Below, piece by piece: positions 26,475 to 49,066 of a stretch of 64,000 bases of DNA (positions are counted from its first letter, which is position 1; each line of letters opens with the position of its first letter). The translations under genes and the position numbers were made by a program. The stretch is from an uncultured Gemmatimonadales bacterium (lineage in GTDB: Bacteria; Gemmatimonadota; Gemmatimonadetes; Gemmatimonadales; Gemmatimonadaceae): assembly GCA_963793305.1 (NCBI GenBank), contig CAWBZV010000002.1, positions 1-64,000 on the forward strand, in the 5' to 3' direction. Below the pieces are notes generated by a model that saw only the letters and a program-made list of their open reading frames with translations, made no database searches and had not been told where the DNA came from.

Positions 26475-27029
26475 TCAGATCCGAGCCAGAATCCATTTCG
26501 TCTGGCGAGCCCTCCGCCACTTTTTCCGGTAGAACTTGAAGTAGAGAGTGACCCAGCCGAATCCGGCGAGCCCTATCGCGACTGGCGCCGCTAACGAAAG
26601 CGGAAACCCGTCCGGCGTGTACAGGTACGCGAGGATCGGTACCACGGACACGAAGCCGAACCCGATCCAGGCAATGACGCGCATGACCGCATTTTGCTTG
26701 ATCTCGTCGAGCACCAAGTGATCGCCATTTTCCAACGTCGGTTCCATCTCACGCAGGAGTCGCGGCAGCGCTTCCGAGGGCACGTGCTTGTCGCGCCACA
26801 GGGCGGAGAGACTTTCAGGCAGCAAGCGCTCGACTCCGTCGAGATTGGAACGAATACCGCGCACGTAATCGACTCGCGGTTTGAAATCCGCCCGAATCGT
26901 CGATCCGCTGATTGCCACCGTATAGTCTTCGACCGTAAACGGTGCGGGGCGGTTCTGGTTCCAGGGGTCAGGCGCCGTGAACGCCGCTTCCGTCTTGACG
27001 TGATACCGCTGAAGGTAAAAAAGGGCCAC
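26475..27029 (-). CDS. Hypothetical membrane protein, paralog C of the DPWN family
   Basis: K.EA.F.A.DPWN.NR, GIRS.L.GV, EALPRLL.E..PTL, QTKWILAR shared with A and B. Confidence 0.75.
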   Translation of the reverse strand: MALFYLQRYHVKTEAAFTAPDPWNQNRPAPFTVEDYTVAISGSTIRADFKPRVDYVRGIRSNLDGVERLLPESLSALWRDKHVPSEALPRLLREMEPTLENGDHLVLDEIKQNAVMRVIAWIGFGFVSVVPILAYLYTPDGFPLSLAAPVAIGLAGFGWVTLYFKFYRKKWRRARQTKWILARI

Positions 27030-29991
27030 CGCTACCTCGGCGTTCGCGATGGTTGTCGCGTCGCCCTCGGTCGCGGTACCACCGCGCGGGCGTTACCCCA
27101 GCGCCAGCCGGTTGACCGAACACCTGCGCCGGGGTGCCGATGGGGCTCGTATTGTTCGGGATACCAAGCTGCTGGTTGGCATCCTGTCCGGTGCAGTACG
27201 CGATCGACGTCGACGACACGACAAAGCACGTAAACGCGCCCCCGTTACTCGCCGTCGCGATCGACCCGACAGTGGCGCCGGGTGTCCCTTGAGGAGACGT
27301 TGGCCCGGCGCCACTGCCACCCACCGTCCCGTCGCCGATCTGGCCAAAGGCATTGTTGCCCCAGCAGTACGCGCCCGAGGTACCGAACCCGCAGACGGTC
27401 GTCGATCCGACGCTGATCGCGGTCAGCGTGAGCGACGGGATCTGATTGGGGATGCTGTCTGGGATTGTCGATCCAGAACCGAGACCCAATTGGCCGTCAA
27501 TGTTGTCGCCCCAGCACCAGACGCCGCCATTCACGTCGATCGCGCAGGTGGTCCATTGACCGGCGCTGATGGCCTTCGCGTTCACCGGCGCGAGCGCACC
27601 CAGGGTGACGCTCTGTGCGAATCCCGTCCCCGTCGTGCTGGTGTGTCCGTCGCCGAGCTCTCCGTATGTGTTATCGCCCCAGCAGAGGATCGATCCGTTC
27701 GTCGTGCTGGTGAGGGCGCACGTATGGTTGTAGCCGGCGCTGACGTAGGCGTAGCTGTTGCCATTGATGGCCGGAGTCGTATGCGCCGTGGCGTCGACCG
27801 TGCCGATGCCGAGCTGGCCGGAAGTGTTGTCACCCCAGCAGGCGATGTAGTTCTGTGGCCCGGTGCTTTCGATGCCGCACGTGTGCATCCAACCGGCGGA
27901 GATCTGCGAGAACGTTGTCGTGGTAATCGCCGTGGGTGACGTGACGGGGCTCGTCGTCGAGCCGATCCCGAGCTGCCCGCGGTCGTTCTTACCCCAGCAG
28001 TAGGCCTTGCCACCGGTGATCAGCGCGCAGACATGGTACTGCCCCGCGACCACGTCGAGCACCGACTGCCCGGTGGTCGTCGGAACAGGTACGTACGTGG
28101 GCAGATACGATCCGGAGCCCGTCGTCCCGATCCCGATCTCGCCGTAGCTGTTGTCGCCCCAGCAGAAGACCGTCCCGCCCGTCGTCAGTCCGCAGGCAAA
28201 AGCCGCCCCGGTGGCGATCTTGGTGAACGTCACCGCGGACGTGAGGTTGATGGTCAGCGTCTGCGGACTGTTGCTGGCATTGGTCGCCGACACCGACGTG
28301 GTCGCGGAGAAGGTGCCGAGGGGTAGGGCCGTTGTGTTCGGCTGGGCAGTGAGCGTTGTTCCGCTGAGGCCAAGCGTCAGCCAGTTGGACGCGCCCGAGC
28401 CATAGACCACGGCGCCATTGGCGATGGTGCCAAGGGAACCGCTGCCCGTGTTGATCACGGTCGTCGTCTGTGCGGCGGCGGGGGTGGTGCCGTTCCCGTA
28501 CTGGTTGAACGCGATCGGATTGGCGCTGAAGCCCATCAATGGGCCGCCACTCAAGTCGAGCTGCACCGCAATGGTCTGCGGTGACACGCCAGCGACCGAG
28601 GAGGACACGGTGAGTTGCGCCGAGTAGGTCCCACCCGCGAGCGCGCCCGGCGTGACGGTGACCGAGAGTGTCGCCGGCGCGGTCGTCGTGTTGAGCGAGG
28701 TCGACACCCAGCCTGTCGCGCCGGCGCCGTATTGTGTGCTCACCGATAGTCCGCTGAGCGTGCCGGTGCCGGCGTTGGTGATGGCGACAGTTTTTGTCTT
28801 CGGACCGGCGCCCTGCGTTGCGGTGTCGACGACGGCGGTCGGCGACACCGAAATGATGGCGCCGGAGCTGATCGTGTATGTCACGTTCAGCGATGCCGAC
28901 GCCCCACCAGCGCCCGTGACGACCACGGTGGCCGAATACTGGCCATCGGCTAGCGAGGTCGTCGTCGGCACGATATCGAGTGTTGCCGGCGTGGTGACGC
29001 CGGCCGTCTGCGCCGTCACTGATCGCCGCGCCGCGCGGGCGCCGAGCTGGAGGCCCGGGGGCAATGGGTGGACGCGTGAGCCGAACGCCGAGTCGCTGAC
29101 ATTGGCGGCAAGCCAGCCGGTTGTTTGGCCGACGTACGTGATCGCGGCGGTCAGTCCCGATACCGGCGTGGTGTCGGTCGAGGTGACGGAGATGAAGGCG
29201 TTGGCCGGCAGGATGCCGGCGTTCGGCGCCGAGAATGTGACGATTTCCGAGCCCAGGAAGAGGCCACTGGCGGCCGTGACCGTGATGACGGACGTTCCGA
29301 GCTGCCCTCCGGCCGATGCCGTGACCTGCGTCGTGCCGACTTTGACACCGGTCACATTGCCGATGGAATCGACGCGCGCGATCGTCGAGTCGGCGCTCGC
29401 CCACACGACGGTGTGTCCAGGCAGCACAGTGCCGTTCACATCCCTCACAGTATCGGTCAGTTGGACCTGCGACCCAACGCTTACCGTGGCAGTGGCCGGC
29501 GCGACGACGACCGATCCGATAGCGGACACGGTGATCGTCGGCGTGACGTTGATCACCTGTCCAGGAACCGCGATGACGGCCGGCAGCGTCACGCTGTCGA
29601 CGACTGTTCCGTTCTGCACCAGCGCCACGCTGATGATCAGCGCGCAGTCGTCCCCGCCGCTGACACGGCGCGGATCGTCGAGGCAGCGCGTCAGATCGAT
29701 CGTCAACGGCAGGCTCGTCGTGCCACTGGCCGTGGAGAGCGTTTTGTCGACGAGGACGACCTGCGTTGGTCCTTGATCGAGATAGAAGATCGAGATGTGG
29801 AGTTGCGATGCGGTCGTCGTGACGACCTGCGCGTTGATCGCCAGCCGCACGTCGTTGGCGTTGCCGTCGGTCGGCGAGCGTCCCTTGAGGCACGCGAACA
29901 GCAATGCCAATGCAGCCAACGCGGCCGGTGCGCGCCACTGACGCCAAGTGCGTATCGCTGCCTTCGCCCAATTCAGAGTCCGGTGTTTCAC
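26968..29991 (-). CDS. Large surface lipoprotein with an Ig-like (Big_2) domain, BACON-like domains and an RCC1-like propeller
   Basis: Lipobox LLFAC; Big_2 pattern; about seven CWGDN.YG.LG.G repeats; the true stop may be near 27032 if the tail is frameshifted. Confidence 0.85.
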   Translation of the reverse strand: MKHRTLNWAKAAIRTWRQWRAPAALAALALLFACLKGRSPTDGNANDVRLAINAQVVTTTASQLHISIFYLDQGPTQVVLVDKTLSTASGTTSLPLTIDLTRCLDDPRRVSGGDDCALIISVALVQNGTVVDSVTLPAVIAVPGQVINVTPTITVSAIGSVVVAPATATVSVGSQVQLTDTVRDVNGTVLPGHTVVWASADSTIARVDSIGNVTGVKVGTTQVTASAGGQLGTSVITVTAASGLFLGSEIVTFSAPNAGILPANAFISVTSTDTTPVSGLTAAITYVGQTTGWLAANVSDSAFGSRVHPLPPGLQLGARAARRSVTAQTAGVTTPATLDIVPTTTSLADGQYSATVVVTGAGGASASLNVTYTISSGAIISVSPTAVVDTATQGAGPKTKTVAITNAGTGTLSGLSVSTQYGAGATGWVSTSLNTTTAPATLSVTVTPGALAGGTYSAQLTVSSSVAGVSPQTIAVQLDLSGGPLMGFSANPIAFNQYGNGTTPAAAQTTTVINTGSGSLGTIANGAVVYGSGASNWLTLGLSGTTLTAQPNTTALPLGTFSATTSVSATNASNSPQTLTINLTSAVTFTKIATGAAFACGLTTGGTVFCWGDNSYGEIGIGTTGSGSYLPTYVPVPTTTGQSVLDVVAGQYHVCALITGGKAYCWGKNDRGQLGIGSTTSPVTSPTAITTTTFSQISAGWMHTCGIESTGPQNYIACWGDNTSGQLGIGTVDATAHTTPAINGNSYAYVSAGYNHTCALTSTTNGSILCWGDNTYGELGDGHTSTTGTGFAQSVTLGALAPVNAKAISAGQWTTCAIDVNGGVWCWGDNIDGQLGLGSGSTIPDSIPNQIPSLTLTAISVGSTTVCGFGTSGAYCWGNNAFGQIGDGTVGGSGAGPTSPQGTPGATVGSIATASNGGAFTCFVVSSTSIAYCTGQDANQQLGIPNNTSPIGTPAQVFGQPAGAGVTPARWYRDRGRRDNHRERRGSGGPFLPSAVSRQDGSGVHGA

Positions 29992-36684: not shown

Positions 36685-37794
36685 ATGGCGATCGACATCG
36701 AAGACCTGGAGACGCCGGTGCCGGTGGTCGACATGGACCGGCTCGAGCGCAACCTCGCGCGGACCGCGGCGTATGCGAAGCAGCATGAGCTGGTGCTCAG
36801 ACCGCATGTCAAGACGCACAAATCGCCGTTCATCGCCGAGCAGCAGATCCGGTCGGGCGCGCGAGGGCTGACGTGCGCGACGCCGCGCGAGATCGAGGTG
36901 ATGAGCGCGGCGAGTGACGACCTGTTGCTGGCGTATCCCGCGCTCGGCCGGTCGAAGCTCGATCGGCTCATGACCGTCGCGCGGCACGCGCGCCTGACCG
37001 TGGCGCTCGATTCGGTCGAGGCGGTCCAGCAGCTCGGCGAGGCGGCAACGGCGGCTGGGCGTGATGTCGCCGTGTATGTCGAGCTCGATCTCGGCATGCA
37101 TCGCGTTGGTGTACAGAGCGCGGCCGACGCGATCGGCGTCATTCGGGCGATCGGTCGGCATCCCTCGCTCCGCTACGGCGGCATCACGTTCTACGCCGGG
37201 CATATCCGCGATCGGGTGAGCGATCAGCACACAAAACTCGACCGGCTGAATCGGGATGTCGATGCCGCGGTCGGCGAGCTCACGAAGGCCGGGTTGACGC
37301 CACCCGTGGTGAGTGGCGGATCCACACCGACCATCTGGCAGACGCACGAGATCGCGCATCTCACCGAAATGCGGCCCGGCACGTACGTCTACAATGATCG
37401 CGGTACGTCGGAGATCGGCGCGTGCACCGAGGACGATTGCGCGTTGACCGTCCTCGCCACGGTCGTCAGCACGGCCGTGCCCGGGCAGGCCGTCGTCGAC
37501 GCGGGTTGCAAGGCGCTCGGGCGCGAGCCCGTGCGCGGCGTGCCTGGCGAAGGATTCGCGAGTGTGCTCGGCAAGCCCCAGGTACTCGTCGTGAGCATGT
37601 CAGAGGAGCACGGCGTCCTCGACCTCGCGAACACATCGTGGCGTCCGCGCGTCGGGGAGCGCGTGCGCATCGTGCCGAACCACGTCTGTATCGTCGTGCA
37701 TCTCCACGAGGCGATCGTCGGCCTCCGCGGCGACGTCGTCGAAACGCACTGGCCGGTCGCGGCGCGAGGTCGGAGCGCGGCGCCCGTCGCGTGA
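36685..37794 (+). CDS. DSD1/D-threonine aldolase family PLP enzyme (alanine racemase fold)
   Basis: RPHVKTHK (PLP lysine), HRVGV, SGGSTPT, EMRPGTYVYND, SEEHG, PNHVC. Confidence 0.9.
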   Translation: MAIDIEDLETPVPVVDMDRLERNLARTAAYAKQHELVLRPHVKTHKSPFIAEQQIRSGARGLTCATPREIEVMSAASDDLLLAYPALGRSKLDRLMTVARHARLTVALDSVEAVQQLGEAATAAGRDVAVYVELDLGMHRVGVQSAADAIGVIRAIGRHPSLRYGGITFYAGHIRDRVSDQHTKLDRLNRDVDAAVGELTKAGLTPPVVSGGSTPTIWQTHEIAHLTEMRPGTYVYNDRGTSEIGACTEDDCALTVLATVVSTAVPGQAVVDAGCKALGREPVRGVPGEGFASVLGKPQVLVVSMSEEHGVLDLANTSWRPRVGERVRIVPNHVCIVVHLHEAIVGLRGDVVETHWPVAARGRSAAPVA

Positions 37795-38672
37795 TCGGCG
37801 TCGACTGGGGAACAAGTCATGTGCGGGCGTATCGCCTGACCGACGATGCCACCGGCACGATCGTCGCTCAGCGGGACTCCGGTGATGGCGTCCTCACGGT
37901 CGAACCCGGACGCTTCCCCCAGGTCCTGGGCGACCTCGTGAGGTCGTGGATCGCCGACGGAGAACGGCGCATCCTCCTCTCTGGCACCGTCGGCAGTCGC
38001 AACGGATGGCGGGAGACGCGACCGGTCCAGTGTCCCGTGCGGCTGGCGGATCTCGCCCGGGCAGTGGAACCCGTCCCGTTTGACGAGGCGTGCGTCCGGA
38101 TCGTGCCCGGCGTCGCCGGCGTGGATGCCGCTGGGGTGCCGGAGGTGATGCGAGGCGAAGAGGTCGAGATCGTCGGTGCCCGTATCGATGCCGGGTGCGT
38201 CTGCCTGCCAGGGTCGCATAGCAAGTGGGTCCGCGTCCAGGACGGGGCCATTATCTCATATTCGACCTATCTCACCGGTGAAGCGTACGCCGCGCTCCGC
38301 GCGCATACACTCCTGGCGAAGCTCATGGGGCCCGAACCACCCGTCGCGGGTCCCGCGTTCGACGCCGGCGTGAGCCGGTCAGCTGAGGACGGAGGGGTGC
38401 TGCATCACCTGTTCGGCGTGCGCACGCTCGGGCTGGCTGGACGCATCACACCAGCGGAGTCCCAGTCGTATCTCTCCGGGTTGCTGATCGGTCACGAGAT
38501 ACGGAGTGCACTCGCGCCGAGCGCTGCGGTGACCGTAGTCGGCGCTCCGGCGCTCGTCGCGCTCTACGTGCGCGCGATCGACGCGTGCGGTGGACGCGCG
38601 ACGCCGGGACCCGAGCAGGCCGCGGCACGTGGGTTGGCGATGATCGGGTCACAGGTCGCATGGACGGACTGA
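37791..38672 (+). CDS. dgoK: 2-dehydro-3-deoxygalactonokinase
   Basis: IGVDWGTS, GSRNGW.E, EVMRGEE, LPGSHSKW, YLSGLLIGHE. Confidence 0.92.
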   Translation: MIGVDWGTSHVRAYRLTDDATGTIVAQRDSGDGVLTVEPGRFPQVLGDLVRSWIADGERRILLSGTVGSRNGWRETRPVQCPVRLADLARAVEPVPFDEACVRIVPGVAGVDAAGVPEVMRGEEVEIVGARIDAGCVCLPGSHSKWVRVQDGAIISYSTYLTGEAYAALRAHTLLAKLMGPEPPVAGPAFDAGVSRSAEDGGVLHHLFGVRTLGLAGRITPAESQSYLSGLLIGHEIRSALAPSAAVTVVGAPALVALYVRAIDACGGRATPGPEQAAARGLAMIGSQVAWTD

Positions 38673-39283
38673 CCTCCTGGCTGGAGCGGTGTCCGCTCGT
38701 CGCGATTCTGCGCGGAGTCACGCCCGATGAGGTCGAGGCGATAGGGGATGCGCTGGTCGGCGCCGGCATTGCGATCATCGAGGTGCCGCTCAACTCTCCG
38801 CGGCCCATCGAGAGCATCGAGCGCCTCGCACGCCGCTTCGCGGAACGCGTGCTGGTCGGCGCCGGGACGGTCATGCGGACCAATGATGTGGCAGACGTCG
38901 CGAGCGCCGGCGGTCGGCTCATCGTGACGCCGCACGCCGCGACGGACGTCGTTCGGGCGGCGAAGACGGCCGGATTGCTCGCGATGCCGGGGTTCTTTAC
39001 GGTGACGGAAGCGTTTGCCCTGATCAACGCGGGGGCAGATGCCCTCAAGCTATTTCCGGCCGAGGCGACGAGTCCCGCCGCGCTTGGCGCCATGCGGGCC
39101 GTGTTGCCGAAAGGGACGCTCGTGCTGCCGATGGGCGGCATCGACGCCGCAGCTTTTTCGCCGTGGGTCAGAGCCGGCGCAAATGGGTTCGGGATCGGGT
39201 CGGCCATCTACAAGCCGGGCGACAGCGCCGCAACGGTCGCCGAGAAAGCCAAGAAACTCATTGCGGCAATGCGAACGCTATGA
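38660..39283 (+). CDS. dgoA: 2-dehydro-3-deoxy-6-phosphogalactonate aldolase
   Basis: PLVAILRG, IEVPLNSP, VGAGTV, LKLFPAE; adjacent to dgoK. Confidence 0.92.
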   Translation: MDGLTSWLERCPLVAILRGVTPDEVEAIGDALVGAGIAIIEVPLNSPRPIESIERLARRFAERVLVGAGTVMRTNDVADVASAGGRLIVTPHAATDVVRAAKTAGLLAMPGFFTVTEAFALINAGADALKLFPAEATSPAALGAMRAVLPKGTLVLPMGGIDAAAFSPWVRAGANGFGIGSAIYKPGDSAATVAEKAKKLIAAMRTL

Positions 39284-41522
39284 TCGTCCCGCCCGCGGCG
39301 GCCGCAATGTACTGGCGGCCGTTCACGGCGTAGGTCATTGGGGAGGCATGCCAGACGGCGTTCGTGTGAAAATGCCAGAGCGGGGCGCCCGTGGATGCGG
39401 ACACCGCGGCCAGCGCGCCGGCATCGTCGCCGTAGAACACGACCCCGCCCGCGGTGCTCAGCACACCGCCCCAGCTGTCACCGGTCCCGATTTGCGGGAT
39501 TTCCCACGCCATCTCGCCCGTCTCCGGGTTGATCGCGCGCAGCACCTTCTGGCGATGCTCGCCCGGCACACGATTCGCGCCGCCGCCATAGAATGACTGC
39601 CCCGGCGTCCACCATGCCGATGACTTGGAAAAAATGCTGCACGCCTCGAGTGCCATCACATAGTAGAGATGCGTCGACGGGTTGAACGACGTCGACATCC
39701 AGTTCGTCGCACCCTCGAGCGACGGACACGCTTTGGTGCCGAGTGGCGACGGGTCCGAGCCGGCCAGCAGTATCGGGCGGCCGTCGGCGCCGATGCCGCT
39801 CGCCCAGGTGAGCTTATGCACGAATGGGTGGCTCAACAGCAGGTGGCCCGTGGTACGGTCGAGCACATAGAAAAAGCCATTGCGATTCGCTTGCAGCAGC
39901 AACTTGCGCGAGCCGTCGTCGACCAGCATCGGCGTTTGCACCGCATCCCAGTCGTGCAGGTTGTGTGGCGTGTACTGGTAATACCACACGAGTCGCCCGG
40001 TCTTGACGTCGAGCGCGAGCACGGAGCTCGAGTACAGGTTGTCGCCCTGGCGCTCGTCGCCGTTGTAATCGGGACACGGATTCCCCGTCGGCCAGTAGAC
40101 GATGCCGGCCGTCGCATCGTACGTCCCCGTCAGCCATGCCGCCCCGCACCCGTGCGCGAGGGCCCGCCCGCGCCACGTCGCGGCCGCGGGGTCGCCAGGC
40201 GACGGCACCGTCGAGAATCGCCAAACCTGGCGCCCGGTGCGCGTATCGTATGCCGCGATGAACCCCCGGTCGCCTTCGTCGCCGCCCGATGTGCCCGACA
40301 GCACGAGGTCGTTCACGACGAGTGGCGCCCCCGTCGCGCCGTAGTGCTTATGGTAGTCGGCCATCTCGACATCCCAGAGGAGCGCGCCGTTGCCGCGCGC
40401 GAGCGCGATGAGATGCGCATGGTCGGTCGTCATGAACACGCGATCGCCGAGTACCGCGACGCCGCGGTTGATCGCACCGGCCGCGTCGCCGATGACGCCG
40501 CTGGTCAACGCCCGAGCATAGTGCCAGACCGGACGTCCCGTGCGGGCATCGAGCGCATACGCTTCGTTCGCCGTCGTCACGAACATCGTGCCATCGACGA
40601 CGATCGGCGTGCCCTCCAGATGCCGGGCACTGGGGATCGGAAAGAGCCAGGCGGGCGCCAAGCCATGCACGGTCGCCGTATCGATCTCGTGGAGCGGGCT
40701 GTAACGGTTGCCGCTCATGTGGCCGTTGTAGGTCGGCCAGTCTTCCGTTGCCGTGTCCGGAGCGACCGGCGACTCGTCGGCTGATCTGATCGTCTCCGGA
40801 CCACGCGTTCTCGTGAGGCGACTCAGAAACGCCAGCAGGTCGCGCACCGTGTCTCGGCCCGCCGTGACCGGCGGCATGAGCGACGTTGACTCTGGTCGCT
40901 CGGCCGCGATCTCATCGCGCGAGAAGTAATGGAGCTGGCCGTTCAAGTCTTCGAGCTGCAGATCGTAGTTGCTCTCGTTCCGCGCCAATCCACGCAGCGA
41001 CCCTCCGTCCCGTAGCGTGACGGAGACGACCCGGTAGCCCTCGCGCGGCGGCGAGCCCGGATGCAGCAGCGACTGCTCCAGGCGCGAGACACGGCGGCGG
41101 TCGCCGATACCCGTGAGATCCGGGCCGAGCACACCGCCCTGGCCACGAATCATGTGACAGGTCGCGCAACCGCCAGCGCCGAAATAGTACGCCGAGCCGG
41201 TGGCGACATTGCCTGTCGGTGGCTTGGCGGAAGCTGGTGAACGCAACCCTGTGATATACGCGACGACCGCATCGAGGTCGCGCGCGGGGAGCGTCGCAAA
41301 CGAGGGCATGCCTGCCTCAGGTACACCATGCCGGATAAATGTCGGCAGCGGTTGCGTGAACAACGTGTCGTCGACGCCGTCGGTGATGTTCGGTCCGAGC
41401 TCGCCGCCCGCGCCGTTCGCGCCGTGGCAGCCGGCGCAGTGGGCGGCAAAGACCAATTCACCATGCTTGACGTCCTGCGCGAGCGCCGTCGTGGCGACGA
41501 GCGCGAGCAACAATATCCTCAT
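39258..41522 (-). CDS. Secreted PQQ-type beta-propeller dehydrogenase with two N-terminal c-type heme domains
   Basis: Signal peptide; CAGCH and CATCH; WPTYNG..GNRYSPL, GDNLYS, HDWDA, SPMTY..NGRQY. Confidence 0.9.
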   Translation of the reverse strand: MRILLLALVATTALAQDVKHGELVFAAHCAGCHGANGAGGELGPNITDGVDDTLFTQPLPTFIRHGVPEAGMPSFATLPARDLDAVVAYITGLRSPASAKPPTGNVATGSAYYFGAGGCATCHMIRGQGGVLGPDLTGIGDRRRVSRLEQSLLHPGSPPREGYRVVSVTLRDGGSLRGLARNESNYDLQLEDLNGQLHYFSRDEIAAERPESTSLMPPVTAGRDTVRDLLAFLSRLTRTRGPETIRSADESPVAPDTATEDWPTYNGHMSGNRYSPLHEIDTATVHGLAPAWLFPIPSARHLEGTPIVVDGTMFVTTANEAYALDARTGRPVWHYARALTSGVIGDAAGAINRGVAVLGDRVFMTTDHAHLIALARGNGALLWDVEMADYHKHYGATGAPLVVNDLVLSGTSGGDEGDRGFIAAYDTRTGRQVWRFSTVPSPGDPAAATWRGRALAHGCGAAWLTGTYDATAGIVYWPTGNPCPDYNGDERQGDNLYSSSVLALDVKTGRLVWYYQYTPHNLHDWDAVQTPMLVDDGSRKLLLQANRNGFFYVLDRTTGHLLLSHPFVHKLTWASGIGADGRPILLAGSDPSPLGTKACPSLEGATNWMSTSFNPSTHLYYVMALEACSIFSKSSAWWTPGQSFYGGGANRVPGEHRQKVLRAINPETGEMAWEIPQIGTGDSWGGVLSTAGGVVFYGDDAGALAAVSASTGAPLWHFHTNAVWHASPMTYAVNGRQYIAAAAGGTIIAFALPQ

Positions 41523-44338
41523 GGCGTGAACACGAGCGTACCAAAATGCTCGGGCACGTGATTCGGGTCGCGATAGACCGTGCACGTCGGATTCCAGCAG
41601 AGGAAATGGCGCTGCGGGTCCGCGCCCTGGCCATCGATCCGATAGAGATTCATCCGCCACCGCGTGCCGGCGGCCACCGGCTGATCGCTGATCGCGCGAA
41701 GCGGGATGCGGGCCGCGGCATACCACACTCTCGCTCGACGGTCGATCCTCGCTTTCGTCTGCCAGCCCGACCGCCAGCGGTAGTCCTCCGCCGGGTGATC
41801 GAGATCGATCGCCAGGTCGATCCAGTCGCCCGTCGGCGCGATCTCGAATTCACGATAGTGGCGGATGTTCTTCCAGTCGTCGCCGAGGAAGATCTCGACC
41901 ACATCGCGATCCCACAAATGGGGGCGAGGGCGGTCGTTCGTTGTCGGCAACCAGAGGTTGAGGGACTCGTACGGGGCCTTGAAGAGCAAATACAACGAGC
42001 TATCGGTCCAGAATCCGCGAATCTCTGTGGCAATCTGCGGGTATCGGATGACTCGTGCGCAGTCGCGGTCCATGCGCGTCGTCGCGACGGTGGACCAATC
42101 TTTGGGATCGTCGGACAATGCCGGCGCCGAGGCCACGTGGGGGATAGAAAGCGTTTCGGTCGAGTCGGTCGCGGCGCACGCCCCGGAGGCGATAGTCCGG
42201 TACGGCACGAAACCATGCGTCCCCGTGCGCAACCGATAGACCGATGTCGTGGCGGTGATGTAGAGCGTCCCGTAATCCGGGTCACCCCACGTGAGATTCG
42301 CGGGCTGCTCCGGCATGACGATCGTGCCCAAGTGATGGCCTTGGCTGTCCCAGACCCAGATGCCATGGGGCCCGGTGACGAACATGTTGCCGTTCGCATC
42401 GAGGCGCATGCCGTCCGGTACGCCGTCACTCGGCTCTCCGGGCTCCTTGCCGAACACCCGCCCATTGGCCAGCGTCGCATTCGGCATGAAGTCGTACTCA
42501 CGAATGTTCCGTTGGCCGGTATCGCTGTCGTCCACGTAGAACGTTCTGCCGTCCGGTGAGAACGCGAGTCCGTTCGGCTGCGTCAGGTCCTTGGTCAGCA
42601 GCGTCACGTTGCCGAGCGTGTCGAGCCGATAGACACCTTGGAAAGGAATCTCCTGAGCCTGACCCTTCGGTAGGTCGAGCGTGGGATCGGTGAAGTAGAG
42701 CGCACCGTCCGGCCCGACCACCATGTCGTTCGGGCTGTTGAAGCGCTTCCCATCGTAGTGGTCGGCAAGAATGGTGTACCGACCGTCCGGCGTGACGGCG
42801 ATGATCGCGCGCAGGACGCTCGCGCCGTCGATGAGCCGATGCGCGCCATCGTACGTGTTGCCATCGGGATCGCCCAAGTGGATGATCCCTTTTTTCTTGC
42901 CGTCCATCGTCACGCGATAGATCGAGTCCTGGATCTCGTCGCTCACGTAGAGGACGTTCGACGTGTCCCAGACCGGACCCTCGGTGAACCCGAATCCCGT
43001 GGCCACGGTCGAGAGCTTGGCGTCGTGCGGAACGAGTTGCCAGAAGCGGGGATCGTTGGCCTCGAGCGCGAAATGCGGCTTTGCCCCGCACCCGGTCGCG
43101 GCCGCCGCGAGGCCGATCGCCGACGCGATGCGAATCGTGCGGTCCGGCCGAATGAACAGCCAGGCCAGCGCGCCGATGACGCAGAGGGCGCCGGCGACGC
43201 CGAACGACGCTGACCAGCCGAAGCGATCGGCGATCCACGGGGTGAGCGATGCGGTTACGACGCCGCCCAGCTGTGCACCCATGTTCATGACGCCGGAGAC
43301 CGCCCCGGCCGACGGTCCCGCGATGTCGGCGCTCACCGACCAGAACGCACTCTGAGCGAGATAGAGGGCGCCAACGCCGCTGGCGAGGACGAGACTGGCG
43401 AGGCCGGCGTTCGTGAGGTGCGTCCCGGCGCCGATGCACACCGCCGCGATCGCAATGCCCCCGGCGGCGACGCCGCACCGCCCGATCTTTCGGCCATAGG
43501 ACCGCACCAGCGCATCGCTCACGAAACCCCCCGCGAACGATCCCGCCGCCATGGCCAGACCCGGGAGCGCCGCGAACACGGCGCTCGATTTGAAGTCGAT
43601 CCCGCGGACCGTATAGAGGTAGTGAAAGAACCAGGTGAAGAAGATGTACGCCGCGTAGCCATAGCAGAAATAGCTCAGGGTGAGAAGGGCGACATTGCGA
43701 TCCGTGGCGATCGACAACCAGGGGATGTGCGGCTCGGCCCGCGTCGGTGCGGGAACGTCCGATGGCGTGTCGCGCGCCAGCAGGAACCAGATGGCGCCCG
43801 CCACGAGACCCAACACTGCACACACGTAGAACGGGGCGCGCCATCCGTGTCGCACGACAATGGCCCTGACGAGGAGCGGCGCCGCCGCCGTCCCGAGGCC
43901 GACGCCCATGAAGATGATGCCGTTCGCCAGCCCGCGTTCTGCCGGCGGGATCCAGGCGGCGACAATGCGGTTCGCCGCGGGGTACATGACCGCTTCGCCA
44001 GTACCGAGCAGGAACCGGATCGAGAGCAGCGCGGGGAACGCGAAGGCCCCAACGGGAACGGATGCCGTCAGGGCAGTGAACACCGCCCACCACATGACGG
44101 CCAGCGTCAGCGTGCGCCGGGCGCCCCAGCGGTCCGCGAGACGACCGACCGGCGCTTGCAGCAGCATGTAGCCCAGGACGAACGCGCCGTACACCAATCC
44201 CAGCGCCTGGTTGTCGAGACCGTACACGCGCTCCAGCCACGTGCCGGCAATCGAGATGTTCACCCGATCGAGGTACGCGACGGTGCTCAGCACGAATAGC
44301 CATCCCACCATGACCCATCGCGCGGAAGTCGGTCGCAT
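41519..44338 (-). CDS. Fusion of an ACS-type MFS transporter, an SMP-30/gluconolactonase and a CBM9-like domain
   Basis: YLDRVNISIA, GRLADRWG (MFS); FTEGPVW, NSPND, QPNGLAFSPD, PDGM (lactonase); LWDRDVVEIF, WRMNLYR (CBM9-like); one uninterrupted 939-aa frame. Confidence 0.85.
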   Translation of the reverse strand: MRPTSARWVMVGWLFVLSTVAYLDRVNISIAGTWLERVYGLDNQALGLVYGAFVLGYMLLQAPVGRLADRWGARRTLTLAVMWWAVFTALTASVPVGAFAFPALLSIRFLLGTGEAVMYPAANRIVAAWIPPAERGLANGIIFMGVGLGTAAAPLLVRAIVVRHGWRAPFYVCAVLGLVAGAIWFLLARDTPSDVPAPTRAEPHIPWLSIATDRNVALLTLSYFCYGYAAYIFFTWFFHYLYTVRGIDFKSSAVFAALPGLAMAAGSFAGGFVSDALVRSYGRKIGRCGVAAGGIAIAAVCIGAGTHLTNAGLASLVLASGVGALYLAQSAFWSVSADIAGPSAGAVSGVMNMGAQLGGVVTASLTPWIADRFGWSASFGVAGALCVIGALAWLFIRPDRTIRIASAIGLAAAATGCGAKPHFALEANDPRFWQLVPHDAKLSTVATGFGFTEGPVWDTSNVLYVSDEIQDSIYRVTMDGKKKGIIHLGDPDGNTYDGAHRLIDGASVLRAIIAVTPDGRYTILADHYDGKRFNSPNDMVVGPDGALYFTDPTLDLPKGQAQEIPFQGVYRLDTLGNVTLLTKDLTQPNGLAFSPDGRTFYVDDSDTGQRNIREYDFMPNATLANGRVFGKEPGEPSDGVPDGMRLDANGNMFVTGPHGIWVWDSQGHHLGTIVMPEQPANLTWGDPDYGTLYITATTSVYRLRTGTHGFVPYRTIASGACAATDSTETLSIPHVASAPALSDDPKDWSTVATTRMDRDCARVIRYPQIATEIRGFWTDSSLYLLFKAPYESLNLWLPTTNDRPRPHLWDRDVVEIFLGDDWKNIRHYREFEIAPTGDWIDLAIDLDHPAEDYRWRSGWQTKARIDRRARVWYAAARIPLRAISDQPVAAGTRWRMNLYRIDGQGADPQRHFLCWNPTCTVYRDPNHVPEHFGTLVFTP

Positions 44339-44389
44339 GATGTGTTACTATGAACCGTTCACGGGGCTCACCGCTAGACGGAGGGACAA

Positions 44390-45631
44390 ATGACCACCCG
44401 ACGCGGCTTCATCGAGAACGGCGTCGCGCTCGCCGCCGCGCTCGGCCTCAAGCTTCCCGGCGAGAAATCGCCGGCCGCGATCGACTACTACGACAAACTC
44501 GGTGTCCCGAAGATCATTAACGCGGCGGGCACTTACACGTACCTGACCGCATCGCTCATGCCGCCCGAGGTGCAGGCGGCGATCACGGTCGCGTCGAGCC
44601 ACAACGTACGTTTGCGCGAGCTCCAGAGCGCGGCCGGTGCGTACCTCGCGCAGCGACTCAAGTGCGAGGCGGCGCTCGTGTCATCGGGCGCGGCCGCCGC
44701 GCTGTCACTGGGCGTCGCCGGGTGCATGACGCGCAATGCGCCGGATGGTGCGCGAGATGTCCCCGCGAGAGTGGCGAGCCTGCCCCACGAGATCATTATC
44801 CAATCGGCGCACCGGTTCGTCCACGAGCACGCGCTCGAGATGGACGGGGCGACTCTGGTCGAGGTGACGACGCTCGACGACTACGAGCGAGCGTTCTCCG
44901 ATCGGACCGCACTCGCGTTCTACTTCAACGCGGCCGAGGGCGGGCAGATCTCGCGCGAGGATTGGGTGCGCGTGGCGCGAGCACACGGCGTGCCGACGTT
45001 CAACGATGCGGCCGCCGACGTGCCGCCGATCGCGAACCTGTGGAACCTGACGGGCATGGGGTTCGACCTCGTCGCGTTCTCGGGAGGCAAAGGCATGCGC
45101 GGGCCGCAAAACGCGGGACTGCTCCTCGGACGCAAGGATCTCATCGCTGCCGCCACCCTGAACAACAATCCCAACGATCGATCCGTCGGGCGCGGGATGA
45201 AGGTTGCGAAAGAGCAGATCATTGGCATGGTCGCGGCGGTCGACTGGCTCCTCGCGCAAACCGACGAAGGGATCGAGGGCGAGGCACGCAGCCGGTGCGA
45301 GCGGATTGCGGCCGCGCTCAAGGGCGTGCCCACGCTCACTACTGAGATCATCGTCCCGCCGGTGGCGAATCACGTCCCGCATCTTATGATCCGGTACGAT
45401 CAGACACGGGTGGGGATCACGCCGCTGGCGGTCGCCGACGCGCTCGCCAAGGGCACGCCAGCGATCGAGCTCAATCCTGGGACCGGCCACGCGTCCGGGG
45501 CCGCCGGTCTCCACTCCGACGAGCACACGATCGTCGTCGGCCCATGGATGATGCGGGCTGGCGACGACGTGATCGTCGGCCGCAAACTCCGGGAAGTCCT
45601 CGACAACGCACTCCATACGGAGCACACGTGA
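44390..45631 (+). CDS. SelA-like/DgaE family PLP-dependent enzyme with a twin-arginine signal
   Basis: MTTRRGF; IINAAGTYT, DAAA, FSGGKG.RGPQ, GRGMKV.KE. Confidence 0.85.
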   Translation: MTTRRGFIENGVALAAALGLKLPGEKSPAAIDYYDKLGVPKIINAAGTYTYLTASLMPPEVQAAITVASSHNVRLRELQSAAGAYLAQRLKCEAALVSSGAAAALSLGVAGCMTRNAPDGARDVPARVASLPHEIIIQSAHRFVHEHALEMDGATLVEVTTLDDYERAFSDRTALAFYFNAAEGGQISREDWVRVARAHGVPTFNDAAADVPPIANLWNLTGMGFDLVAFSGGKGMRGPQNAGLLLGRKDLIAAATLNNNPNDRSVGRGMKVAKEQIIGMVAAVDWLLAQTDEGIEGEARSRCERIAAALKGVPTLTTEIIVPPVANHVPHLMIRYDQTRVGITPLAVADALAKGTPAIELNPGTGHASGAAGLHSDEHTIVVGPWMMRAGDDVIVGRKLREVLDNALHTEHT

Positions 45632-45633
45632 TT

Positions 45634-46428
45634 ATGGAACGCAGAGAATTCGTCGCCCAAACCGCACTCGGCTCGTTAGGCATCGCCGCCACGAAACTCG
45701 AACCGGCGGCGACGATGCTCGGTAGCCACGGCTCCGCGGCGACGCGGAAAATTCTGATCGCCGGCGGCATATACAACGACGTGTGGATCAAGTACATGGC
45801 GACGCTCACCGGCAAGCCGCGTCCCCGGATCTGCTACCTGCCGACTGCTTCGGCGGACCACCCGGAGGGGATCATCCGCTTCTATGCGGATTGCTCGCAG
45901 CTCAACGTCGTGCCCTTCGTGCAGACGAGCTTCATTAGCAGCTACGACCAGAAGCAGACGTTCGCCGAAGTCTTGCTATCGATGGACGCCATTGTCTGCT
46001 CTGGCGGCAACACGCTCAACCAGCAGGTGATCTGGAAGGCGCAAGGCATCGACCAGGTGCTGCGTGATGCCTGGGACCGCGGCATTGTGCTCGGCGGCGC
46101 GAGCGCGGGGTCCCTCTGCTGGTTCGAGGAAGGCACGACGGACTCGCGCCCCAAGGAGTTGTCGATCGTGCTCGCCCTCGGCTTGCTCAAGGGGAGTCAC
46201 TGTCCGCACTACGACGCCGAAGGCCCGCGCCGGCCGCTGTACATGAAGCTCATCGGCTCCGGCCAGATGAAGCCCGGGTACGCGTGCTACAACCAGGCCG
46301 GGATCTACTTCGAGGACAACGAGGTCAAACGCGTCGTCGCTTCCCACGCTGACGCGAAGGTGTTCTACGTCAGCGTGGTCAACGGACAAGTCGCGGAGAA
46401 GGAGCTACCGGCCGAGTTAATCAGTTGA
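45634..46428 (+). CDS. Peptidase E (S51) family protein with a twin-arginine signal
   Basis: MERREF; YLPTAS, GGNT, GASAG nucleophile, CPHYD. Confidence 0.88.
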   Translation: MERREFVAQTALGSLGIAATKLEPAATMLGSHGSAATRKILIAGGIYNDVWIKYMATLTGKPRPRICYLPTASADHPEGIIRFYADCSQLNVVPFVQTSFISSYDQKQTFAEVLLSMDAIVCSGGNTLNQQVIWKAQGIDQVLRDAWDRGIVLGGASAGSLCWFEEGTTDSRPKELSIVLALGLLKGSHCPHYDAEGPRRPLYMKLIGSGQMKPGYACYNQAGIYFEDNEVKRVVASHADAKVFYVSVVNGQVAEKELPAELIS

Positions 46429-48211: not shown

Positions 48212-49066
48212 CTACGTAGTTCTTATCGAAACGTCAACCAATTTGTTGACGATTCTGCTCGCCAGCGCGAAATACTCGGCGTCGCGCTCCACGCCCACGC
48301 ATTGTGCTCCGACCGCTTCGGCCGCGGCGAGCGTTGATCCCGATCCCATGAAGGGATCGGCGATGACCCCGCGGCCAAGGGGCAGGACCGCATACGCGAG
48401 TTGTCGCAGGAGCGACTGCGGCTTGAGGCTCGGGTGATCGGCGATGGCGCGCTCGCGCTTTGGCGTGCGCTCGCTCAGGATCACGTCGAGGAACGGTCGG
48501 CCATCGCTGAGCCGCCGGAGACCCCCGGTCTCGTACGCCCGCAGGCAGTCCGACACTTTCATCCCCGGCGGAAGCGGCGAGCGAAAAATTCCCCAGGGCT
48601 CGTACGATCCACGGGGCATTGAGCACACATTGGGGAATTCCTCGTGCGCGTTCTTCGGCCGATCCCCACCGCGGAGCGTGCGAACCACGCGGATGAGCTC
48701 GCCGCGGAATTCCAGGCCGCCGCCGACGATCGCCGACCAGACGAGTTGCGATAGGAACGCGTTGCCCGCGACGAACACATGACCACCCGGGCGGAGCGCG
48801 CGAACCGCCAGTCGCGACCAGCGAAGAAAGAACTCACGCAGCAGCGAGCGTTCTTTCGCGTTGAGCGCCGTGAAGCGGGGCAGGGGTGATCGCTCGTGGC
48901 CATCGAAGCTCGGCGGAATGCGCCAGATGCCGCCCTTGTTCCCGTTGCGCAGCCGCTCCAACTGATCGCGGTCGAACTCCTTCACGCCGTACGGTGGATC
49001 CGTGATGATCGCGTGCAGACTGTGGGGCGGAATGCGGTGCAACCACTCGAACCCGTCGGCGCGCAC
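48212..49066 (-). CDS. Orphan N6-adenine/N4-cytosine DNA methyltransferase (beta-type motif order); start uncertain
   Basis: TDPPY, HPSLKP, DPFMGSGST; the frame stays open to 49120. Confidence 0.9.
   Translation of the reverse strand: MRADGFEWLHRIPPHSLHAIITDPPYGVKEFDRDQLERLRNGNKGGIWRIPPSFDGHERSPLPRFTALNAKERSLLREFFLRWSRLAVRALRPGGHVFVAGNAFLSQLVWSAIVGGGLEFRGELIRVVRTLRGGDRPKNAHEEFPNVCSMPRGSYEPWGIFRSPLPPGMKVSDCLRAYETGGLRRLSDGRPFLDVILSERTPKRERAIADHPSLKPQSLLRQLAYAVLPLGRGVIADPFMGSGSTLAAAEAVGAQCVGVERDAEYFALASRIVNKLVDVSIRTT

Follow-up and report, generated by a model that had tools for sequence, protein, structure and literature searches.

In the De Ley-Doudoroff pathway, galactonate is degraded with the proteins DgoT, DgoD, DgoK and DgoA, and among enzymes for amino sugar acids, glucosaminate dehydratase (EC 4.3.1.9) is a classical one. 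The ong pathway of Pseudoalteromonas prydzensis comprises OngB, OngC, OngD/RidA and KdgK, as outlined in PMC9537276, and in haloarchaea a DgaE-like step via the 6-phosphate has been proposed to follow glucosamine oxidation, according to the account in PMC12343721. Here, we analyse a gene block in a 64,000-nucleotide stretch of DNA (the window; positions 1 to 64,000 of contig CAWBZV010000002.1, assembly GCA_963793305.1) from an uncultured Gemmatimonadales bacterium of the family Gemmatimonadaceae. From sequence comparisons, we propose with a probability of about 60% that the block at positions 37791–45631 breaks down a 2-amino-2-deoxy-D-hexonate (hexosaminate), and that a pyridoxal 5'-phosphate (PLP) enzyme resembling SelA and DgaE (hereafter the SelA-like enzyme) fills the slot of DgoD. 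A first-pass annotation, made from the sequence alone, had predicted an oxidative amino-sugar route into DgoK and DgoA. Such a route fits our comparative data and the lack of dgoD, but the annotation had named the wrong lyase, a DSD1-type PLP enzyme encoded next to dgoK.

The route is of a kind already described, the ong pathway (PMC9537276). As in that pathway, a PLP enzyme would deaminate an unphosphorylated hexosaminate to a 2-keto-3-deoxy acid and ammonia, followed by a kinase and an aldolase, with RidA as a partner. By the same account, OngC is a fold-type III enzyme predicted to be cytoplasmic, its substrate stems from chitin oxidized by lytic polysaccharide monooxygenases, and the back end is of the gluco type (KdgK). 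In contrast, the system described here would combine a lyase of the SelA/DgaE fold, preceded by a twin-arginine translocation (Tat) leader, with a heme-pyrroloquinoline quinone (PQQ) dehydrogenase, a tethered lactonase and a DgoK/DgoA back end; none of the ong cluster partners (deacylase, RidA, KdgK, MurR/RpiR) was found beside the lyase in the block. A literature search, covering mainly openly accessible papers, gave no account of a lyase exported in this way and none of a lyase for galactosaminate, and passages and four supplements of PMC9007349 gave no match for glucosaminate.

The SelA-like gene (44390–45631, plus strand), and not the DSD1-type gene, tracks dgoK (37791–38672, plus strand; PF05035, 273 bits; a DgoK-family 2-keto-3-deoxy-hexonate kinase) and dgoA (38660–39283, plus strand; a DgoA-type aldolase with 266.8 bits for NF006600, against a cut-off of 207). 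In what follows, compared genomes, loci and genera are labelled G, L and g, respectively. Among 301 genomes of the family, dgoK was found in 16. In four of these, a dgoD that exceeds the cut-off adjoins a distant dgoK (35–38% identity), and no SelA-like match was found. In the remaining 12, no dgoD exceeds the cut-off, and every one of them encodes an orthologue of the SelA-like enzyme (at least 71%) and of the dehydrogenase (at least 70%; split in G287). In five genomes of genus g57, the SelA-like, dgoK-dgoA and dehydrogenase genes are spread over three separate loci. Orthologues of the SelA-like enzyme occur in 15 genomes of the family, three of them without dgoK: the SelA-like gene is directly followed by a PfkB kinase gene in G120 (best model KDG/KDGal kinase, below the cut-off) and by a DHDPS-family aldolase-like gene in G113, and the contig of G217 ends behind it. 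Genome G206 (96% complete) retains a scaffold of RidA, amidohydrolase, RidA and permease genes together with the DSD1-type gene; the SelA-like gene and dgoK-dgoA are missing on either side of the amidohydrolase gene, and this genome also lacks the dehydrogenase.

As two genera account for all 12 genomes, these are not independent, and the test was therefore made outside the family. Among 301 genomes of the phylum, three from other families (94–99% complete) contain an orthologue of the SelA-like gene, and in all three a gene for a major facilitator superfamily (MFS) carrier is followed by the SelA-like gene, dgoK and dgoA in one run. In none of the three was a DSD1 gene found within 17 kb or a dgoD gene over the cut-off; a DSD1 orthologue lies on another contig in two of them, the search having taken in those two and not G350. 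The three dgoK genes form a branch of their own in a quick tree. An independent origin of these operons is not established, as a shared origin was not rejected (p-AU 0.071, for a group chosen after the tree had been seen). More distant SelA-like loci (n = 31, being 33 loci minus two at 97–98%; some of the queries came from these loci) have as partners RidA (11), dehydrogenase (8), lactonase (7), CBM9-like (7), MFS (5), PRK09237 amidohydrolase/deacetylase (5), PIG-L deacetylase (5), RraA-like (5) and PfkB kinase (2) genes, and DSD1 and dgoK in no case. Annotated clusters of Granulicella and Chondrinema carry the same set of partners, and in L248 (Granulicella tundricola) and L249 a SelA-like lyase with Tat leader occurs together with a leader-bearing RidA.

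The absence of a galactonate dehydratase from the window, noted in the first-pass annotation, extends to the whole source genome (G000; 92% complete), in which the best score for NF010624 was 48.9 against a cut-off of 311. The only IlvD/Edd gene of this genome sits among ilv and leu genes, and the UxuA and GarD/UxaA families gave no match. The dgoK gene of the window encodes the only DgoK-family kinase found in the genome, the dgoA gene encodes the only aldolase of its family by tblastn, and tblastn gave no match to a kdgK-like gene. The block shares DgoK, DgoA and an MFS carrier nearest to a galactonate transporter model with the De Ley-Doudoroff pathway, and differs from it in the lack of DgoD, the operon place of which is taken by a PLP enzyme in three genomes. 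An ordinary oxidative galactose route of the De Ley-Doudoroff type, with a dehydratase that is unassembled or non-orthologous and with both PLP genes as passengers, would explain why dehydrogenase, lactonase, carrier, DgoK and DgoA together make up a textbook set, and would agree with the incompleteness of the genome and with the frequency of orphan dgoK-dgoA pairs. We nevertheless regard this route as very improbable: dgoD is lacking in the 12 plus three genomes discussed above, several of them 94–99% complete, the source genome has galK and no spare IlvD, UxuA or GarD, and it is the SelA-like gene that occupies the dgoD slot of the three operons.

Structure prediction for the SelA-like enzyme gave a model with a predicted local distance difference test score (pLDDT) of 85 and a low-confidence N-terminus. 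Its closest folds were DgaE (7lc0, ranked first, template modelling (TM) score 0.78) and Cap15 (TM 0.77). The PLP lysine, K234 in FSGGK, aligns with that in the YSGAK motif of DgaE, and the proposed reaction is the same, an elimination on a D-amino sugar acid. Unlike the DgaE route, which phosphorylates during uptake, the system described here has no phosphotransferase system, and its kinase would act after the lyase. The arginines 301, 332 and 346, which bind the substrate phosphate in DgaE as described in PMC9529869, align with H331, N362 and W386 of the SelA-like enzyme, as mapped through an annotated DgaE-family comparator; two DgaE-type comparators keep all three arginines as well as the histidine pair H162/H163, which is replaced in the SelA-like enzyme. 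From the loss of the phosphate-site arginines, an unphosphorylated substrate is predicted, with which a downstream kinase makes sense.

The SelA-like enzyme also differs from DgaE in its leader (44390–44479, plus strand), which contains the motif TRRGFI; DgaE has no twin-arginine leader. Tat leaders follow the consensus S/T-RR-x-F, and a leader of this type, approximately 30 residues long, stands before the mature domain wherever the 5' end of the gene is intact (46 of 46 loci with at least 50% identity; 48 loci in total, two with a cut 5' end; five are repeats of one sequence), with R4, R5 and F7 nearly invariant. TatC was found in the source genome. The SelA-like enzyme is thus probably a Tat substrate and exported. 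Leaders are likewise borne by the RidAs, stand-alone lactonases and deacetylases encoded adjacent to the lyase in relatives. The ESM Atlas returned SelA-family clusters only, and a protein search returned only generic names.

Several observations weigh against hexosaminate ammonia-lyase as the function of the SelA-like enzyme. Its identity to DgaE is approximately 24%, it scores far below both DgaE cut-offs (112.3 of 600 bits for NF047797, 145.8 of 385.3 bits for TIGR01437), and the DgaE histidines His162 and His163 are not kept; Tat export is a prediction from the leader motif. No partner gene was found near the SelA-like gene in 11 of the 31 distant loci, and dgoK-dgoA without a nearby dehydratase is common, being seen in 71 of the 72 distant dgoK loci, many of which are short. 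The window contains no RidA, and the block no deacetylase. In G120, which is 99% complete, a kinase is present and no PF01081 aldolase was found. Finally, no orthologue of the dehydrogenase was found in the three genomes from other families or in G113, G120 and G217 (best matches 31–40%); the oxidative front end is therefore not universal, and the conserved core consists of MFS carrier, lyase, kinase and aldolase.

The enzyme is, moreover, equally close in sequence and fold to an oxygenase, Cap15, a monooxygenase-decarboxylase (PDB 8T7J) whose substrate, as described in PMC6411801, is a sugar-bearing beta-hydroxy alpha-amino acid. Together with the missing DgaE histidines and the many orthologues that stand alone, this would allow a Cap15-like reaction, in which O2 is used to decarboxylate a beta-hydroxy-D-amino acid and an amide is formed, or a reaction on another such amino acid, with DgoK and DgoA taking a different keto-deoxy acid. 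We consider this unlikely. Cap15 is biosynthetic, whereas the SelA-like enzyme has as recurrent partners RidA and catabolic keto-deoxy-acid kinases and aldolases of unrelated families (DgoK, PfkB, DgoA, Eda, DHDPS-like, RraA-like), which suit an elimination that yields a 2-keto-3-deoxy acid but do not suit an amide as the product. The H163A mutant of DgaE, furthermore, is reported as still active (PMC9529869).

The DSD1-type enzyme (36685–37794, plus strand), proposed in the first-pass annotation as the replacement of DgoD, has the features of the fold-type III family of DSD1 and D-threonine aldolase (PF01168 plus PF14031, the PLP lysine K43 and a metal site). D-threonine aldolase is described as having the metal ligands His347/Asp349 and the base His193 (PMC4401734); the DSD1-type enzyme has H333-x-C335 at the metal site and an Asp at the position of His193, and it lies below the cut-off for BhcC (214 of 690 bits). 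Its residues fit an enzyme of the dehydratase/eliminase type and not a D-threonine aldolase, in line with the first-pass annotation. In the window, its gene is joined to dgoK by a GTGA stop/start overlap. The annotation had described such overlaps throughout the run of DSD1, dgoK and dgoA; the dgoK-dgoA junction is a 13-nt overlap of another kind, and the DSD1-dgoK overlap is not fixed among relatives. In seven informative close metagenome loci, the DSD1-dgoK junction is direct in four and interrupted in three, and in the two closest genomes, G001 and G004, a gene for 278 amino acids lies on the opposite strand between the DSD1-type gene and dgoK. This gene (L038:10963–11799 in G001, L040:5548–6384 in G004) begins like a lipoprotein gene and matches no Pfam family.

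In its distribution, the DSD1-type enzyme follows the family and not dgoK. Orthologues (E ≤ 1e-100) occur in 207 of the 301 family genomes, a tally that takes in the unpublished G012, G161 and G275, against 16 genomes for dgoK; in genus g111, each of 19 genomes has one. In a quick tree, which leaves out matches shorter than 280 amino acids or running over a stop, including the orthologue of G005, the enzyme nests in a family-wide clade (support 90). The linkage to dgoK is not conserved: dgoK is absent beside the DSD1-type gene in 27 of 29 relatives' loci (1.5-kb flanks), and only the two closest have it nearby. Two genomes without dgoK, the SelA-like gene and the dehydrogenase, G005 and G206, still have the DSD1-type gene; in G005, where the whole block is missing, it is directly followed by a peptidase S51-family gene. 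Conversely, the pathway is present in G235 (81% complete), in which no DSD1 orthologue was found. Elsewhere, the neighbours of the DSD1-type gene vary, RidA adjoining it in three of 11 loci. Most likely, therefore, to judge from these comparisons, it encodes a family-wide household eliminase of the D-serine/D-threonine type, next to which the block has ended up. This calls for caution: a stop/start overlap made a household gene look like part of the pathway and drew attention to the wrong enzyme.

This distribution also bears on the idea that the DSD1-type enzyme is a cytoplasmic, OngC-like hexosaminate ammonia-lyase feeding DgoK. We rate it as improbable overall, even when a promiscuous second route after import is included, and as still less probable for the main enzyme. 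It draws on the eliminase-type His-Cys metal site without the counterpart of His193, on the translational coupling with dgoK that is seen in the window and in the four close metagenome loci, and on OngC itself, which has the same fold type and deaminates D-Ser, D-Thr and glucosaminate, as outlined in PMC9537276. The best case for the mechanism of the first-pass annotation is found in G003, in which a different DSD1-type paralogue (45%) lies directly before dgoK-dgoA (L082:16534–17610). In a quick tree, this paralogue groups with proteins of Azospirillum and Agrobacterium. Its identity to Azospirillum proteins, among them one from a D-aminoacylase-RidA cluster, is 66%. In addition, relatives of the DSD1-type enzyme at 42–43% identity sit in ong-like or amino-sugar-like clusters of Rhizobium and Paracoccus. 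Because of this paralogue and these clusters, the DSD1-type enzyme may have an auxiliary role as a lyase for the block, and at most that. The "amino acid deaminase" of an ong-like cluster, a comparator and not OngC itself, is 27% identical to it, on a long branch. Two alphaproteobacterial loci (L251:7467–11056 and L252:4480–12441) contain genes of the D-threonine aldolase family with M81 peptidase, RidA and MurR/RpiR genes and a sugar kinase or hexosaminidase gene; they are ong-like, with M81 at the expected place of OngB. The second DSD1-family gene of the source genome (G000:C19:8933–9980) is split into two pieces in different frames.

The front end that would supply the SelA-like lyase is encoded on the minus strand. 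The dehydrogenase gene (39258–41522) is convergent with dgoA, with which it shares 26 nt, and encodes a predicted secreted di-heme PQQ-type enzyme with two CxxCH motifs. Its nearest model is TIGR04528 (acido-empty-quinoprotein group A; 503.1 of 650 bits, below the cut-off). The vicinal Cys-Cys seen in the aligned alcohol dehydrogenase is missing from it, and the catalytic Asp lies in D-x-D, a motif associated with lanthanide binding. A sugar is its presumed substrate. The search for PQQ synthesis genes suggested in the first-pass annotation found pqqC in the genome. The MFS, lactonase and CBM9 parts, on which the operon was described there as converging together with the quinoprotein, are indeed present, not as separate genes but as one open reading frame of 939 amino acids (41519–44338) comprising MFS, SMP-30/gluconolactonase and CBM9-like parts. 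This fusion is no assembly error, because it recurs in G001, G002 and G003. Its MFS part is nearest to the D-galactonate transporter model TIGR00893, below the cut-off, and its CBM9-like match lies below the Pfam cut-offs (E 1.4e-4 and 3.6e-4). A hydrophobic linker ending in AATGC (amino acids 402–417; 43088–43135, minus strand), not called as a membrane segment by a hydropathy scan, resembles the lipoprotein-type leader that stand-alone lactonases carry in relatives; with it, the lactonase would lie on the outside. The gene pgl is the sole PF01182 match of the genome. As the annotation had described, the SelA-like gene is divergent from the fusion gene, from which a 51-bp spacer separates it.

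Taken as a pathway, the secreted heme-PQQ dehydrogenase would oxidize a hexosamine or an N-acetylhexosamine and so yield the lactone, which the membrane-tethered lactonase would open. In the step with the best genomic support, the Tat-exported PLP enzyme would then eliminate the C3 hydroxyl of the unphosphorylated D-amino acid to give ammonia and a 2-keto-3-deoxyhexonate. Hydrolysis of the enamine/imine would be carried out in most relatives by an exported RidA, which the lineage of the window appears to have lost. The MFS carrier would import the keto-deoxy acid, on which DgoK and then DgoA would act. The leaders on the lyase and its partners suggest that oxidation, lactone opening and deamination probably take place outside the inner membrane, before import. 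The first-pass annotation had placed import before deamination; the leaders point to the reverse order, with deamination probably periplasmic.

Since the elimination erases C2 and C3, only the configuration at C4 matters. The beta-1 strand of DgoA, PLVAIL, is the same as in E. coli DgoA, A11 and I12 being kept; at the V154/T161 site the window has Met and most relatives of the clade have Val, not Thr. By the criteria given for aldolases of 2-keto-3-deoxy-6-phosphogalactonate and of the gluco type (A11/I12, Val154, Thr161) in PMC4915726, the beta-1 strand is of the galacto type and the second site, with Met in the window, lacks the Thr; on this, we lean towards galactosaminate. This leaning is weakened by one acidobacterial locus that pairs an orthologue of the SelA-like gene with a gluco-type eda over the cut-off, so that enzymes of the lyase family may act on gluco substrates as well. 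On balance, a galacto configuration is slightly favoured, a gluco configuration is a serious second candidate, and acceptance of both seems improbable. Only tentatively can all of this be combined into a periplasmic deamination of D-galactosaminate by a Tat-exported enzyme of DgaE fold without the phosphate site, the substrate being supplied by a heme-PQQ dehydrogenase and by a lactonase fused to the carrier of the product.

Such a system, if it exists, would be an oxidative galactosamine pathway that releases nitrogen outside the cytoplasm. The proposal that the SelA-like enzyme acts on hexosaminate provides a testable function for a widespread family of "selenocysteine synthase-like" proteins with Tat leaders in Acidobacteriota, Gemmatimonadota and Bacteroidota, and would be one way to feed dgoK-dgoA without dgoD. 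Bacteria without nagA, which was not found in the source genome, could then draw both carbon and nitrogen from amino sugars, with ammonia released in the periplasm.

Some further features of the window and of related loci were recorded. An Amidohydro_2 gene beside dgoK-dgoA in G003 and g57 was considered as the deacetylase of the pathway, but is not diagnostic, as it occurs in 90 of 301 genomes. In the source genome, genes for a sugar ATP-binding cassette (ABC) ATPase and permease lie with a leader-bearing Amidohydro_2 gene at G000:C2:556178–559874, and their counterparts in G131 and G235 share one cluster with the lyase and dgoK-dgoA. In the loci L124–L195, which have a distant dgoK (46–56% identity), this gene forms an orphan cassette, mostly with dgoA; no DSD1 or SelA-like gene was found nearby, many of these loci being short. 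A TGAACnGTTCA palindrome in the 51-bp spacer was rejected as an operator, since it has two mismatches in G001 and is absent from most of 14 spacers, and a promoter and terminator scan gave a signal no better than that of shuffled sequence. The SelA-like gene is followed by the peptidase S51-family gene (45634–46428, plus strand), a neighbour outside the core that has an RRxF leader; it is kept without the SelA-like lyase in G005 and in G206, in the latter near the scaffold. Farther away, the window contains an open reading frame at 48212–49066 with a DPPY motif, which, from its translation, we take to be typical of DNA amino-methyltransferases, and a long one at 26968–29904, presumably encoding a surface-protein-like product with RCC1-like repeats.

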